Shown here piece after piece: positions 20,297-59,331 of a stretch of 64,000 nucleotides of DNA. The translations under genes and the position numbers were made by a program. The notes under the pieces were generated by a model. The model was given only the letters and a program-made list of their open reading frames with translations. It did not search any database and had not been told where the DNA came from. Source of the DNA: Escherichia phage vB_EcoM_G17; sequence record MK327931.1; one strand, 5' to 3'. The first letter of the stretch is position 1, and the number at the start of each line of letters is the position of its first letter.

Positions 20297-20324
20297 ATTA
20301 TATCAGTTATTGGTTTTTTGTCCC
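20297..20324 (-). promoter_or_regulatory. sigma70-type promoter GGGACA-16-TATAAT
   Basis: Minus strand GGGACAAAAAACCAATAACTGATATAAT between CCA gene and Nudix gene. Confidence 0.45.
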
Positions 20325-30306: not shown

Positions 30307-30735
30307 TTAGTTAATAATAAAGGTAATTTCAGGATTCATTTCCGAAACTGCATTGCGTTTACTTCTATCCCATAGTATTCTGTTATTATACAAAGAAGAA
30401 TCACATACTACAAGTAAGCAATTTCTTAATCTACTTACAGTACTTTGATTATTTAAATCAGTTTCTGAAATAAAAAATACATTTTCAGGAACTACTAAAG
30501 GAATAGATTTATCAAAAAACAAAACTACAATAGGTCTTGTTGTATGAACTGATTTAACGAAATCCAAAATACTATTATAAAAATTAGTTTCTTTAGTAAT
30601 TACTGACGGATCTTTAATTCTTTTCAAATATTGCTGTGGTAATTGATGTTCGTCTTTTATCTGAAACTCAAAATATTCTTTGAATAACATTTGTGTTAAT
30701 TCGGATTTATCGGATATTTTCGTTGTGTTACTCAT
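30307..30735 (-). CDS. hypothetical protein (142 aa)
   Basis: ORF. Confidence 0.5.
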   Translation of the reverse strand: MSNTTKISDKSELTQMLFKEYFEFQIKDEHQLPQQYLKRIKDPSVITKETNFYNSILDFVKSVHTTRPIVVLFFDKSIPLVVPENVFFISETDLNNQSTVSRLRNCLLVVCDSSLYNNRILWDRSKRNAVSEMNPEITFIIN

Positions 30736-30873
30736 TCACTTCGTTCTCTCGTAACTCAAGAAGTCACTGCGTTTACTTCGTAAACTAGTTCCTTCTGAAA
30801 ATGATAATGTACTTTAAAAACTTGACGGGATTTGTTGAGGACTATTACATCCCCCCGCAGGGGAATGAAGGTA

Positions 30874-30900
30874 ATAAAAAAGAGACAATTAAGTCTCTCT
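30874..30900 (-). terminator. rho-independent terminator closing the non-coding locus
   Basis: Hairpin AGAGAC-TTAATT-GTCTCT followed by TTTTTTATT on minus strand. Confidence 0.55.
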
Positions 30901-31389
30901 TGACGATGATGGCATCGGATATTATCGAATTGCGAATTTCTCAAATTTTGGACGGATCTTTCTTGTACCAAAATTTAGAGAGCGAAAGCGGGTTGCTCGG
31001 TTTCTCTCTATCGCAGTCATATGCAACGGTCGCTGGTCTTTTCATCAACAGCACTCAGTACTAACTCTATTCGATCAAAGTAGTACTTGTTCTCAAATTT
31101 TGGACGCAACTTTCTTGTAAAAATTGCGTCCGCTATTCTTGAACTCCCTTAGCAAATCTGGTAAGGTGCGAACCTTATACATCTATCTAGGAACTCTCTG
31201 TATGCTTATCGGAGTTCTTTATACAGCCGTGTCGCCGTGATTCGTGGTCTTACATCGTGTTTGTTTGAATGCCAGTACTCTAACAGGTTTCTTCTGCTGT
31301 TCGCTACAACGGTAAAGCTCATCTATCCTTTACATTTTCAAGAGAAGTAGGTTCTCAGTGTCCATTTTTCAATGTCCGTTGTCATTTTC
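30874..31389 (-). ncRNA. candidate structured non-coding transcript (~0.5 kb) between promoter and terminator; function unknown
   Basis: No ORF over 40 codons with credible RBS; GC visibly above flanks; multiple hairpins including CGAAAG tetraloop stem; direct repeat TCTCAAATTTTGGACG at 30946 and 31093; bounded by promoter 31397..31424 and terminator 30874..30900. Confidence 0.3.
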
Positions 31390-31396
31390 TATATAC

Positions 31397-31424
31397 ATTA
31401 TATCATTGGAACATATAATGTCCC
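31397..31424 (-). promoter_or_regulatory. sigma70-type promoter GGGACA-16-TATAAT
   Basis: Minus strand TGGGACATTATATGTTCCAATGATATAATG; near-copy of element at 56614..56642. Confidence 0.5.
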
Positions 31425-31425
31425 A

Positions 31426-31902
31426 TTACATGTATACTTTTTTTAAATCCTTAGAACAACGATCAAAAATTGTGTTTATGAATTCAACATCTTCGATAAT
31501 ATTCGAATCGTTAGCAACATTTTCATTTCTTGTCGTGTTCCTATATGTGTGTTCAGGATGATTGTATACCACCTTGACTACATTATTTAGGTCTATAAAA
31601 TTTGACGTTTTTTGCGTATAGGAAGCCTGAAGCTTGATGAGTTTACCATCATTCTCAAGATTGGTTTTATGAATTAGTTCTTCAATGCCAGTTAAATGGC
31701 TATAGCTATCTTTTTCTTTTACAAAAGTAATAGTAACAAGAACTGCTTTCTCATCTCCCATATCGGAAATGTTTTTTACAGCACTGATAATTTCTAAGTT
31801 TGAAAAATCTAATTCTTTAAGCATTTTACAAATATTTCCACAAAGTTCGATAAGTGATAATTTCTTCTCTGGTAACAGAAACTTCATTGCACTTAACACC
31901 AT
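31426..31902 (-). CDS. hypothetical protein (start uncertain; ATG at 31824 would avoid 77-nt overlap)
   Basis: ORF; alternative in-frame ATG 31824 abuts upstream stop. Confidence 0.45.
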   Translation of the reverse strand: MVLSAMKFLLPEKKLSLIELCGNICKMLKELDFSNLEIISAVKNISDMGDEKAVLVTITFVKEKDSYSHLTGIEELIHKTNLENDGKLIKLQASYTQKTSNFIDLNNVVKVVYNHPEHTYRNTTRNENVANDSNIIEDVEFINTIFDRCSKDLKKVYM

Positions 31903-32234: not shown

Positions 32235-32891
32235 TCAATCATGTTTATTCAATTTCTTCTGTTCTTTTTTCAAAGCTTTCATATGACGACCAAACTCTCG
32301 AACATGCCATAGATGATCGGTTTCCCATAATTCTTGACGTAACCTACGTTCTTCTAGTAGTTTCGACTTGTCAATGTTATTTTTCTTTTTTTGTACATTA
32401 AAGAAATTATTCATATGTTCTTGGAGAAGATTACGACCTTTAACTTTCTCAAGAAACTCATCAACTGTTTCAGTTTTATTCGAACGTAGTTGATTACATC
32501 TGGAGCACATAGTATTAAAGTTTGACTCTAAATCAGGTCCACCCTTAGATGCCAGATGATTATGGTCAACTGTCATTAAAACTTCATAAAGACCACATAC
32601 AGCATATACATTTAAATGTGGTTTACCATATACTGGATCAGAACATAATGAACGTTCAATGCGTACTTCAGTAGCTTCAATCCCACATGCCACGCATTTT
32701 GGATTCTTAACAAAAGTAAGAACTTTTTGTGGGAAATATCGAAAAGTAATACCATTTAAAGTGTAGCGTTTCATCTTAGTACTTCGTTGATTTAATTCGT
32801 CAAGAAGTGATAATTTTGTCGTATAGTAAACATGATATTTGTTCATTTTATTCCTTGATATTGATTTTAATATCTTTACCTTGTAAATCAC
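32235..32891 (-). CDS. HNH homing endonuclease
   Basis: HNH core VDHNHLASKGGPDLESNFNTMCSRCNQLRSNK. Confidence 0.8.
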   Translation of the reverse strand: MIYKVKILKSISRNKMNKYHVYYTTKLSLLDELNQRSTKMKRYTLNGITFRYFPQKVLTFVKNPKCVACGIEATEVRIERSLCSDPVYGKPHLNVYAVCGLYEVLMTVDHNHLASKGGPDLESNFNTMCSRCNQLRSNKTETVDEFLEKVKGRNLLQEHMNNFFNVQKKKNNIDKSKLLEERRLRQELWETDHLWHVREFGRHMKALKKEQKKLNKHD

Positions 32892-46989: not shown

Positions 46990-47460
46990 TTAAAAATCTT
47001 TATTTTTATATAGTATTCTTTGATTATTTGAACCACGGAAAGGTAATTTTAAATTCTTTTCGGACTCGATAAACTTACCATCAACTAATACATCTAAGTA
47101 CTGAAGTATATCTTTAGCATGATTTTTCATAATCTCATCTAAAGTATACCCACTCCAGCACCAAATAGTTTTACTAGGATAAGTTTCTTTAACTACTTTG
47201 CATAGATTTAAAACTTCATCTATATTCTTTTTCATTAATGGATCGCCGCCTAGAAGTGACAAACCACTAACATATGGTTTTTTTAGTTCCTGTAGTATAA
47301 TCTCAACTGTTTCAGTACTGAACTCTTGTCCACTTCGGTAGTCCCATGCTTCTTCATTGAAGCAACCATCACATCCGTGCGAACACCCACTAACAAATAA
47401 AGAGCAGCGAACGCCCTCTCCATTTACTAAATCATCCTTGATTATCGTCTGGTAATTCAT
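46990..47460 (-). CDS. nrdG: anaerobic ribonucleotide reductase activating protein (radical SAM)
   Basis: Radical SAM cluster motif CSHGCDGC; 156 aa; adjacent to nrdD. Confidence 0.85.
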   Translation of the reverse strand: MNYQTIIKDDLVNGEGVRCSLFVSGCSHGCDGCFNEEAWDYRSGQEFSTETVEIILQELKKPYVSGLSLLGGDPLMKKNIDEVLNLCKVVKETYPSKTIWCWSGYTLDEIMKNHAKDILQYLDVLVDGKFIESEKNLKLPFRGSNNQRILYKNKDF

Positions 47461-47764
47461 CTAATATTGCACTCACTATTTCGACAAGAACATCGCCGTG
47501 ACATGATTTTGGTTTACAGAAACAACCAAGGCGTTTCCCTGCGAGTTCAAGTAATTCATCAATCTTAACTTCTCCACAAGAAATACGTTCAATAATGTAT
47601 TCTCTGAATTTTTCAATTGATTCTTCTCTTGTACTAACAATGAATTCGGCTTTAGTTTGTTTATCTTTAATATGGGTAAATGGGTTTCCCCATTTAGACC
47701 CACGTCCAATATACACATCATACGGTTCTTTGTATTTGTTAACCACAATTGGCTTTAAATCCAT
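47432..47764 (-). CDS. DUF4326-like protein (110 aa)
   Basis: YIGRGSKWGNPF and LGCFCKPKSCHGDVL motifs as recalled for DUF4326. Confidence 0.55.
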   Translation of the reverse strand: MDLKPIVVNKYKEPYDVYIGRGSKWGNPFTHIKDKQTKAEFIVSTREESIEKFREYIIERISCGEVKIDELLELAGKRLGCFCKPKSCHGDVLVEIVSAILDELPDDNQG

Positions 47765-47772
47765 AATTTACC

Positions 47773-49578
47773 TTATTTGTGCTGAATACGCTCACAACAC
47801 TCTTGTTGTTTGCCTTTATTGAATCCACGCGAAGAAGGATTACCCAAGTAACCAGAAACACGACGAATCACTGAGATTGTCTTCTCATTACGATTATCAC
47901 ATACCGGACAGTGGAAACCATGTTTATCTACACTGAACTCACCCTGGAAGCCACATTCATAACAATGGTCAACTGGTTGGTTAATACCAAAATATGGTAT
48001 CTTAGTGTACGCATAGTTAACTAATGTTTCAAGTGCTTGAATGTTGTTTGCTAAGTTTGGAGATTCAACATAACTGATGTTTCCACCGTTACTTAGGTAA
48101 GCAAACCCTTCTTCATAACTCCATTTATCAAATGGAGAACTTTCTACCCATACTGGTTGATGGAAGGAATTTGTGATGTAATCACGTTTTAGTACTGAAG
48201 GATATTTTGCTTCAATGCAACGTGCAAATTTATAACAAAGCGACTCTGCTGGAGTTCCATATAGACTAAAAGCAATATTACTTTCTTTTTTGAACTCATC
48301 ACATTTTACTTTCATATAATTCAGTACTGACATACAAAACTCCTTACTGATAGAACCAGTGAGGATTTCTGAACATTCAACAAGACCAACATAACCAATA
48401 CTAATACTAGCATAACCATTGTAAAATAGCTTGTCAATGGTTTCTTCTGCACCTAAACGTGCTAATGCACCTTCCATGAACAAAATTGGATTCTGCTTCG
48501 CTTTAGTGCCTTTTAAACGCTCCACACGGTTCATCTGAGCACGATATGCAATATTCATGTGCTCGTCTATCTTATCAAAAAACTCTCCATCAGAAGCACT
48601 CTCAAGAGCAATTAGAGGTAAATTGATAGAAACTACGCCTAAATTGAAACGACCGTTGTATTGTTCATTTCCATTTGAATCTTCCCATTTTCCTAAGAAT
48701 GAACGACAGCCCATCGGTGTTACAGCAGTACTACTACTTCCAGTCACTTTGTGATTTAATGGAACTGAAACAAAGTCTGGGTAGATTCGTTTTGATGCAC
48801 AACGCATAGCTAACTGTTTAAGGTCATAATTACTATCATTGGTATTCATGTTTATACCATCTTGTAAAAAGAAAATTACTTTAGGAAACACTGGAGTAAT
48901 CTTATCTTTACCTAAACCATTCTCATGAACTTTTAAGTACTGTTCAGTGATTAATTTACCAAATTTAGAAGTATTAAGCCCTAAACTAAGAGAAATGAAT
49001 GCAGCTTGTCCATTAGTGCTAATCATTGAATTAGTCTGGTAAAGTAATGTTTGACATCCATCGTATACTTCTTTTCGTAATTCTTCTTCAATGAACTCAT
49101 CACTTAGATTATATTTCTTTTGTTTTTCTAACAGCTTATCCCATGACTTTTGGACGTAAGGTTCAAGACCAACGTCAATATGAGCCAACGATTGTCCACC
49201 GTACTGGGAACTGGCAACAGCTTGGACAATTTGTGTCAGTACTGTGCAAGCTACACTGAAACTTTTTGGTTCTTCAATTTTAGCACAACCAATAGTGAAG
49301 CCGTTTTTAAGCATATCAGGATAGTTAACCAAGCAACAATTGGTCAATGGGCTAATATAGTAATCTAAATCATGAATATGACCATATCCATCATTATGCC
49401 ATTGCATTAACTCGGTGGGAATAACATCTTGTGAATAATGCTTAGATAGAATACCTGCTAGTAAATCTCTATGTGTATTGACGCATTTTGCATCTTTATT
49501 AGCGTTTTCATTAGTAAGATCAGTATTACTCTGATTTAGGAAATTTGTTACATCGGTATATAATTTATCTAATTGCAT
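47773..49578 (-). CDS. nrdD: anaerobic ribonucleoside-triphosphate reductase (class III)
   Basis: C-terminal glycyl-radical motif RRVSGYLG with Cys cluster; N-terminal NENANKD..RDLLAGILSKHY matches T4 NrdD; start set at ATG 49578 after AGGAA (ORF extends to 49641). Confidence 0.9.
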   Translation of the reverse strand: MQLDKLYTDVTNFLNQSNTDLTNENANKDAKCVNTHRDLLAGILSKHYSQDVIPTELMQWHNDGYGHIHDLDYYISPLTNCCLVNYPDMLKNGFTIGCAKIEEPKSFSVACTVLTQIVQAVASSQYGGQSLAHIDVGLEPYVQKSWDKLLEKQKKYNLSDEFIEEELRKEVYDGCQTLLYQTNSMISTNGQAAFISLSLGLNTSKFGKLITEQYLKVHENGLGKDKITPVFPKVIFFLQDGINMNTNDSNYDLKQLAMRCASKRIYPDFVSVPLNHKVTGSSSTAVTPMGCRSFLGKWEDSNGNEQYNGRFNLGVVSINLPLIALESASDGEFFDKIDEHMNIAYRAQMNRVERLKGTKAKQNPILFMEGALARLGAEETIDKLFYNGYASISIGYVGLVECSEILTGSISKEFCMSVLNYMKVKCDEFKKESNIAFSLYGTPAESLCYKFARCIEAKYPSVLKRDYITNSFHQPVWVESSPFDKWSYEEGFAYLSNGGNISYVESPNLANNIQALETLVNYAYTKIPYFGINQPVDHCYECGFQGEFSVDKHGFHCPVCDNRNEKTISVIRRVSGYLGNPSSRGFNKGKQQECCERIQHK

Positions 49579-56613: not shown

Positions 56614-56646
56614 ATTATATCATGTATGGGACATAATGTCCCATAC
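56614..56646 (-). promoter_or_regulatory. sigma70-type promoter GGGACA-17-TATAAT overlapping a 22-bp perfect palindrome
   Basis: Minus strand GTATGGGACATTATGTCCCATACATGATATAATG; palindrome GTATGGGACAT/ATGTCCCATAC. Confidence 0.5.
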
Positions 56647-58779: not shown

Positions 58780-59331
58780 CTATAGATAACTAATTAGTAA
58801 GTTTTCTTTTTGAACCAGATACTCCAATTCTTGTTTTGCTGTACCGATGAAGTTCTGTGTCATAAGATTATTATATCCCGCTTCTCGATTTTGTCCCTTA
58901 GAATAACGAGAAATATGACATAAATTTACACCAGCAACTTCTGCACTTGCATGTTTAGCATTAGTGTATCCATCTCTAATGTGTTTCAACTCGTCATAGG
59001 TTACTTCATAGCTAAAACTGTGACTGTTTGCACCTGGGTAAATTTCAAAAGTTTTGAGTGGTCGAAGATGGGAAACAAAAATATTGTAATCCATTTCTTC
59101 TTGAACTTCACGACGCAACGCATCTTCTAGTGAGATATCAGTACTTTCTACGGTTCCACCACATCCACCAAGAAGACCATCCCATCGTAATTGCAGTAAT
59201 ACTAAATTTACTTCTGGTATATCATTCAACTCATAGTTTTTGTAAGGGTTGCATTTTCTTGCAAAGAAATAACAAAATACAAAATTTGCACGTGTGCCAT
59301 ATTCACCAAAGGGAACTTCTTTAACACTCAT
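58780..59331 (-). CDS. Nudix-like hydrolase
   Basis: Nudix-box-like GGCGGTVESTDISLEDALRREVQEEMD. Confidence 0.5.
   Translation of the reverse strand: MSVKEVPFGEYGTRANFVFCYFFARKCNPYKNYELNDIPEVNLVLLQLRWDGLLGGCGGTVESTDISLEDALRREVQEEMDYNIFVSHLRPLKTFEIYPGANSHSFSYEVTYDELKHIRDGYTNAKHASAEVAGVNLCHISRYSKGQNREAGYNNLMTQNFIGTAKQELEYLVQKENLLISYL

Follow-up and report, generated by a model that had tools for sequence, protein, structure and literature searches.

The window analysed here (64,000 nt) derives from a PBECO4/121Q-type jumbo coliphage (Asteriusvirus), a member of the ~350-kb "RaK2-like" jumbo myoviruses. Between two protein-coding genes it contains a gap that holds a putative promoter, a large structured RNA and a terminator-like hairpin, all encoded on the minus strand together with both flanking genes (Table 1). 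The RNA measures ~515 nt up to its U-tract, and ~675 nt when the 3' hairpin module and tail of the conserved unit are included. A first-pass annotation had described the gap as GC-rich and free of any credible ORF, and both descriptions held. Its GC content is 0.40, against 0.25-0.33 in the flanking genes, and, in the window copy, no ORF on the RNA strand is longer than 38 codons and each frame has 8-15 stops. The locus is 100% identical to those of Escherichia phages SHEFM2K, BF17, and Sharanji, 99.6% identical to that of PBECO4, and 95% identical to that of 121Q.

Table 1. Coordinates of the features at and around the RNA gene, 5' to 3' along the RNA strand (positions in the window unless another record is named)
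Feature	Position	Strand	Elements and basis
Flanking gene	31426..31902	minus	158-aa ORF
Promoter (putative)	31397..31424	minus	-35-like GGGACA (31419-31424), 16-nt spacer, extended -10 TGATATAAT (31397-31405)
5' domain	31191..31390	minus	Helices 1-6; RNAalifold and pair counts
Variable 5' hairpin, 5' domain	31359-31377	minus
Helix H2	31323-31347	minus
Invariant AGAUGAG	31318-31324	minus
Helix H3	31303-31318	minus
Long-range helix H4	within 31286-31301	minus	Pairs with 31217-31231
Helix H5	31280-31287 with 31235-31240	minus	CCUGUUAG with UCACGG
Helix H6	31191-31217	minus
Conserved junction	31144..31187	minus	GAUAGAyrUAUAAGG-loop-CCUUACCA...GCUAAGGGAG, with hairpin UAAGG/CCUUA; near-invariant in alignment A1
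Peripheral insertion hairpin 1	31090..31132	minus	CGGACGCAA...UUGCGUCC; holds direct-repeat copy 1 (31090-31119)
Hairpin H8 (helix 7)	31058..31086	minus	Loop AUCGAAU (31069-31075), 5' strand of the pseudoknot
Hairpin H9 (GCUG...CAGC)	31032..31052	minus	4-6 bp stem, sequence differing by clade
Invariant core	30978..31031	minus	GACCGUUGCA (31022-31031) and GAUAGAGAGAAACnGAGCAACCCGCUUUCGnUCUC (30978-31012); invariant columns of A1
Peripheral insertion hairpin 2	30939..30981	minus	Holds direct-repeat copy 2 (30938-30967)
3' pseudoknot strand and hairpin	30901..30942	minus	AGAAAUUC, pseudoknot partner AUUCGAU (30924-30930), hairpin GAUG...CGUC (30901-30918); helices 7 and 11
Intrinsic-terminator-like hairpin + U6	30876..30901	minus	-10.8 kcal/mol, z = -4.1
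Post-terminator 10-bp hairpin	30845-30869	minus	UUCAUUCCCC-UGCG-GGGGGGAUG; fixed stem, variable tetraloop; -13.8 kcal/mol
18-nt block	30823-30840	minus	CCUCAACAAAUCCCGUCA (consensus CCUCAACAAAUCyCGUCA); unique in window
Tail	30716..30822	minus	AT-rich spacer, then covarying hairpins (phages and islands)
C(GAA)G triloop hairpin	30771-30785	minus	Only such hairpin within 64 kb
Tail hairpin	30727-30757	minus	Loop AACGAAGUGA
Tail end	30716-30724	minus	AACGAAAAU
Flanking gene	30307..30735	minus	142-aa ORF
Promoter-class copies	58870-58897, 56614-56642, 31397-31424, 20297-20324, 1284-1311	all minus	Each on the coding strand
ORF calls over the RNA gene	SHEFM2K (L002) 1957-2523; 121Q (L001) gene 516; fHe-Yen9-04 (L004) g347/g348		SHEFM2K call by PHANOTATE

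A promoter scan recovered the near-consensus promoter proposed earlier (GGGACA-16-TATAAT) and added a TG extension to its -10 element; transcription would start at ~31390. The extended -10 (TGnTATAAT) was kept in nearly all homologues, the exception being uv22, which has CCTATAAT. GGGACA-N12-17-(TG)ATATAAT, with its unusual -35-like hexamer, is a recurrent phage promoter class represented five times in the window versus 0.26 expected. The terminator proposed at the 3' side of the gap likewise stood: its stem (helix 12) carried double changes in 4 of 5 pairs and its T-tract was invariant. A simple terminator scan did not include this hairpin in its output. Both assignments draw on sequence and conservation, and we refer to the two elements as putative.

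Using the gap sequence as query, we found homologues at 67-72% DNA identity across genera, with conservation confined to the gap. They occurred in Cronobacter phage GAP32, Pectobacterium phage CBB, Yersinia phage fHe-Yen9-04, Serratia phage BF, Erwinia phages, Salmonella phages Munch and 7t3, Xanthomonas phage XbC2, and others, at loci mostly annotated "none". Klebsiella phages RaK2 and K64-1 carry a far more divergent full-length copy (nhmmer E = 4e-41); the invariant core, whose 16-mer is unique in the window, was the only segment of the RNA that blastn detected in RaK2. Every RaK2-like jumbo phage examined had a homologue.

An exact-pattern scan of IMG/VR revealed two copies in single genomes, and a B-type query recovered a second copy from each of the genomes listed. 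These copies, A and B, point the same way at a distance of ~80 kb, and their mutual identity is 65-72%. The window carries the A copy only; apparent evidence for a second paralogue within it, in the form of extra BLAST "places", came from an internal repeat matching itself. Neighbouring genes differed between contexts. A copies occupied at least two gene contexts with unrelated downstream genes, and B copies were flanked by the genes for endonuclease VII and the baseplate hub, with the genes downstream convergent to them.

Several smaller observations concern these contexts. The A and B copies of one phage lineage (L013/L014, L015/L016) clustered together rather than with same-type copies elsewhere, and the B-type pseudoknot sequence was nonetheless common to several lineages. 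Taken together, these patterns hint that the paralogues have undergone partial gene conversion, or that duplication has happened repeatedly. An HNH homing-endonuclease gene (32235..32891, minus strand) lies ~1 kb, or three genes, from the RNA gene, and free-standing endonucleases could partially explain the varied A-copy contexts among genera. Within RaK2 and KP13-7, the RNA gene sits directly downstream of a phage sigma factor (RaK2 ORF244, L068 221-1117). This adjacency was rejected as a general trait: it did not recur in other clades, and Munch_274, at the same position, is unrelated.

The homologues gave no sign of a protein-coding past. No ORF position was common to them, and variable columns were spread evenly over the three codon positions (81 of 136, 86 of 141, and 81 of 138), indicating no codon periodicity. 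Indel lengths were mostly not multiples of three, with 364 leaving a remainder of one, 92 a remainder of two, and 62 none. Across the RNA gene, several public records annotate short "hypothetical protein" ORFs (23-62 codons), almost certainly in error.

The scans for known RNA families that had been suggested with the first-pass annotation were all negative. Rfam 15 returned no match at the gathering threshold across the whole window, and at E < 10 nothing fell inside the RNA body for the window copy and seven divergent homologues; the families covered include GOLLD, ROOL, RNase P, tmRNA, group I/II introns, 6S, and HEARO. ARAGORN predicted no tRNA or tmRNA gene in the window, in line with the earlier failure to fold a tRNA from the gap, and none in 18 homologous loci. 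These results indicate a new RNA family, and we found no description of it in the literature. A 2023 catalogue of viral structured-RNA candidates holds only unnamed motifs of 29-151 nt, which could include a fragment of it (PMC10690425).

Evidence for a conserved RNA structure came from alignment A1, which contains 22 distinct sequences. It combines long invariant blocks (GACCGUUGCA; GAGCAACCCGCUUUCG) with hairpins whose arms vary by clade. RNAalifold predicted 83 pairs, two helices among them long-range, with compensatory changes in 28. For a 70-pair subset, 97.1% of cells across the 22 sequences were paired, versus 83.8% after column shuffling and 36-45% in a slide control that moved the 3' partner by 1-3 columns. 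Both sides had changed in 28 of 70 pairs, versus 7-11 when slid. The covariation score was 0.385, versus 0.02-0.07 in controls, and was reached by none of 500 shuffles. The window copy itself folded at -150.9 kcal/mol (z = -4.3). Frequent G-U pairs fix which strand is the RNA.

Tertiary organisation is indicated by a 7-bp pseudoknot, in which the H8 loop AUCGAAU (31069-31075) pairs with AUUCGAU (30924-30930). Complementarity was 7 of 7 in five sequence versions (48 loci), and three more compensated versions were recognised by eye in RaK2, L033, and L055. The A and B copies themselves differ here in a compensated manner, with (N)UCGAAU/AUUCGA(N) in A versus AUUGUAU/AUACAAU in B. This loop-strand pairing is read here within one molecule; it may form in cis or between molecules. 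MAFFT misregistered H8, H9, and the UAAGG/CCUUA hairpin, and H8 and H9 were checked through independent folding. Independent folds of 20 diverse homologues gave the same three-hairpin layout ahead of the invariant core, with differing arm sequences. UAAGG/CCUUA had UGAGG/CUCA variants among homologues (by eye).

Compensatory changes among relatives had been named in advance as a check on the idea of a structured noncoding RNA rather than a degraded gene. The covarying pairs and pseudoknot, together with the lack of 3-nt periodicity and of a shared ORF, strongly support that interpretation at the level of comparative sequence. The individual motifs singled out at first reading fared less uniformly. 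The hairpin GGACGCAA/TTGCGTCC is present in the sequence. So is GAACTC/GAGTTC, which covaries strongly (helix 6, double changes in 6 of 6 pairs); over helices 1-6 of the 5' domain, both sides had changed in 21 of 30 pairs. The supposed CGAAAG tetraloop was a reading of the wrong strand, as the RNA strand gives GCUUUCG within an invariant block. The direct repeat exists, but at 30 nt with a spacing of 152 nt (30938-30967 and 31090-31119) it is longer than the 16 nt, ~147 nt apart, first reported. Its role had also been misjudged: it is a duplicated peripheral stem-loop that occupies two insertion sites in some clades and none in others. The columns of insertion hairpin 1 are missing in GAP32, CBB, Yen9-04, and Kaldavass, and insertion hairpin 2 is missing in most B-type copies.

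The 3' boundary originally drawn at ~30874 proved too short, as conservation continues beyond the terminator to ~30716. The CCCC-GCAG-GGGG hairpin noted previously is real and belongs to this region (30845..30869), outside the interval first delimited. Nearly all tail hairpins are perfect Watson-Crick palindromes, whereas the RNA body is rich in G-U pairs. The post-terminator motif was considered as a genome-wide promoter or signal and rejected on account of its single occurrence in the window. The annotated ATG of the 142-aa ORF (30735) falls in the loop of the conserved tail hairpin at 30727-30757, and the true start or translational control of this ORF may depart from the annotation.

Copies of the RNA also occur in bacterial chromosomes. 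Among one-per-species bacterial and archaeal genomes there was no true match and a single chance match, and no copy was found in plasmids. Six pattern matches with 27-29-nt gaps, which gave the appearance of a remote family, were unrelated GC-rich coding sequences. A complete chromosomal copy, 76% identical, was present in 2 of 5,426 complete E. coli genomes. Host-RNA mimicry was rejected, since there was no similarity to E. coli core genes and the only E. coli matches were these island copies. Both (L070/L071) lie in a ~10-kb island at ffs that contains an integrase split by IS3, a DuOB-DUF488-mSLOG/DUF4326 operon, a DUF2188 gene, and a resolvase. DuOB (E = 1e-58) and DUF488 (E = 1e-69) matched PADLOC candidate PDC-M45, and DUF2188 matched PADLOC candidate PDC-S16. 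The RNA is intact though the integrase is broken. After the RNA tail, the island has ~700 bp of further non-coding DNA with repeated TTATCGATCGTT / AACGATCG motifs (L070 15900-15975) that resemble iterons or operators.

A second group of islands, in Enterobacter and Klebsiella (L072-L077, L038-L041), was identified through a metagenome scan and a look-up via a 165-aa neighbour protein. These islands occupy several chromosomal sites and share a core of a large serine recombinase, the RNA, the 165-aa protein, a CI/LexA-type repressor, a wHTH protein, and two small membrane or secreted proteins. The cargo varies (RT+STM3845, a 1,056-aa SIR2 protein, or HNH+DUF6998) and is followed by a resolvase. 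The RNA was present in every such island found (E <= 1e-96). This small integrative island family, with which the E. coli ffs island and its DUF2188 cargo can be grouped, is apparently undescribed. The two island proteins tested for phage homologues, hyp118 and the 165-aa protein, had none.

Island copies keep the whole unit, including the post-terminator module (30823..30869) and the tail. A neighbour-joining tree, drawn without bootstrap support, places them next to Eneladusvirus-type B copies, and this nesting within phage diversity favours capture from phage. With the unit captured intact, the RNA is a likely point of pressure in the conflict between phages and their hosts or satellites, in which it probably matters.

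Several known systems offer partial parallels. ROOL and GOLLD are large ornate RNAs, common in phages and prophages, that form Rfam families and often lie beside tRNA genes. The RNA described here resembles them in size class (0.5-0.8 kb), in being phage-borne, free-standing, and heavily structured with long-range pairings, and in having a function likewise unassigned. It differs in its lack of any sequence or structure match to them, its enterobacterial jumbo-phage hosts, its two paralogues per genome, its capture by islands, and the absence of adjoining tRNA genes (ARAGORN, window and 18 loci). ROOL and GOLLD assemble into homo-oligomeric cages through intermolecular kissing contacts. RNase P RNA M1 is also pseudoknotted (~400 nt), and contains AACAGAGAGCAAACCGCC, similar to the invariant AACAGAGCAACCCGCU of the phage RNA. 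However, the look-alike motifs stand in a different order and no Rfam RNase P model matched at E < 10 in eight homologues; we take the resemblance as chance. By description only, the locus can be likened to the ORF-free 0.5-1 kb gaps of other large lytic phages in which RNA-seq revealed abundant noncoding RNAs of unassigned role, namely the ~800-nt RNA of ICP1 (PMC7567579) and ncRNA001-004 of PA5oct (PMC7318152). PA5oct is a distant relative of the RaK2-like clade, and its ncRNA loci contained no homologue of the RNA family (nhmmer best E = 3).

On sequence and comparative grounds, the identity of the locus as a free-standing gene for a large pseudoknotted noncoding RNA of a new family is secure. 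Regarding its role, we propose with moderate confidence, and by analogy, that this compactly folded RNA, here the A paralogue, acts in trans. Host RNA polymerase would transcribe it from the sigma-70-type phage promoter, and the long-range helices and loop-to-strand pseudoknot would impose a defined tertiary structure in which the invariant purine-rich junctions may form a binding or active surface. It could then be the RNA subunit of a ribonucleoprotein or the scaffold on which one is built, or it could assemble from RNA alone, as ROOL and GOLLD do. Three features favour a trans-acting folded RNA: its junctions are invariant, it does not depend on gene context, and its pseudoknot is specific to each paralogue. 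The islands would have acquired a B-type copy from phage and kept it intact, where it may titrate the partner of the RNA and so interfere with the phage, or exploit an infecting jumbo phage. The conservation past the terminator in every context, comprising the G-rich hairpin, the 18-nt block, and the tail, is not obviously explained by a purely trans-acting RNA.

That same conservation is part of the case for the main rival, an RNA-primed cis-acting replication origin, which we judge to be unlikely. The transcript would form a hybrid with the template close to the U-tract and the G6 hairpin and serve as primer for DNA synthesis. Each of the two copies would be an origin, and RNA-only islands would be minimal satellites replicated and packaged by the jumbo phage. 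Plasmids bearing T4 oriF or oriG are replicated and packaged upon T4 infection. ColE1 RNA II and the T4 oriF-oriG transcripts are likewise promoter-driven, ~0.5 kb long, and have a G-rich element near the 3' end, and T4 has more than one such origin per genome. The G-rich hairpin, AT-rich spacer, and near-perfect Watson-Crick palindromes past the terminator would suit an origin, as would two copies per genome in one orientation ~80 kb apart, the position of B copies beside recombination and replication genes (gp46/47-like, EndoVII), and the uptake of the whole unit by islands without replication or packaging genes of their own. However, the transcript would meet a canonical terminator before the supposed RNA-DNA transition, with a covarying hairpin and invariant U6-7 in nearly all members; L033 is the exception to the order of terminator before G-rich hairpin. 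Unlike the ColE1 and T4 transcripts, the phage RNA has no antisense RNA I-like partner, and its tertiary structure is far more conserved, with invariant junctions and a pseudoknot beyond the needs of a primer. Iterons and a conserved unwinding element are absent from it, no GC-skew turning point was seen (a weak test in T4-like phages), and the RNA persists beside the broken integrase of the E. coli island.

An anti-defence or mimic RNA appears quite improbable. On this view the phage RNA would disarm an immune factor of the host, much as the pseudo-ToxI RNA of phage PhiTE neutralises ToxN, with the island copy as the cognate cellular RNA or as a counter-decoy. The family is indeed common to phages and to islands with candidate defence genes, and the island order of RNA, terminator, and same-strand protein gene is that of type III toxin-antitoxin loci. 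Unlike ToxI-like RNAs, the phage RNA lacks tandem repeats, having only two 30-nt repeats, 152 nt apart, in some clades, and the phages have no conserved toxin-like protein downstream or adjacent to it. The nesting of island copies within phage diversity argues against a cellular-antitoxin origin, and both paralogues are kept in every phage, whatever the host.

We consider it very unlikely that the RNA is a cis-regulatory leader (a riboswitch or attenuator, for instance) that governs terminator read-through into the downstream gene. The window, GAP32-type A copies, and the islands all have promoter, structured RNA, terminator, and gene in an order that would fit, and the GAUG and CGUC motifs have possible alternative pairings. 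However, B copies are equally conserved and face convergent genes, which shows that the RNA is not a leader there; downstream genes are unrelated between contexts, and ~500 nt far exceeds known leaders. A decayed protein-coding gene or chance intergenic sequence, suggested by the short ORFs that some pipelines call here (PHANOTATE in SHEFM2K; 121Q gene 516), has a negligible likelihood given the absence of a shared ORF, of codon periodicity, and of indels in multiples of three, and given invariant 16-20-nt blocks across genera with compensatory pairing.

A broader and rather doubtful proposal, distinct from the trans-acting role favoured above, makes the RNA the handle that links a new class of minimal satellites or defence islands of Enterobacteriaceae to RaK2-like jumbo phages. 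The phage would depend on an essential replication or assembly RNA, acting in cis or trans, held as two orthogonal paralogues. The islands, with a recombinase, a CI-like switch, and defence cargo but without replication or packaging genes, would carry one stolen copy. An infecting jumbo phage might then amplify and package the island, or its RNA-dependent step might be poisoned. If true, jumbo phages would have their first described satellites, with an RNA-based mechanism of hijacking or immunity. Few large, intricately folded RNAs lack an assigned function, and new biology has followed from each. This family occurs in widespread jumbo phages, several of them under development for therapy, whose records almost all leave the RNA unannotated. 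The question is directly testable in E. coli K-12, a host of Sharanji, whose locus is 100% identical.

Beyond the RNA itself, the only further link between islands and phage was a weak DUF4326-domain match in the window. The DUF4326-like domain is encoded at 47459-47776 (minus strand) and shares 41% identity over 109 aa with the mSLOG+DUF4326 protein of the PDC-M45-like operon in the E. coli island; by sequence similarity, a candidate defence component may have its phage counterpart here.
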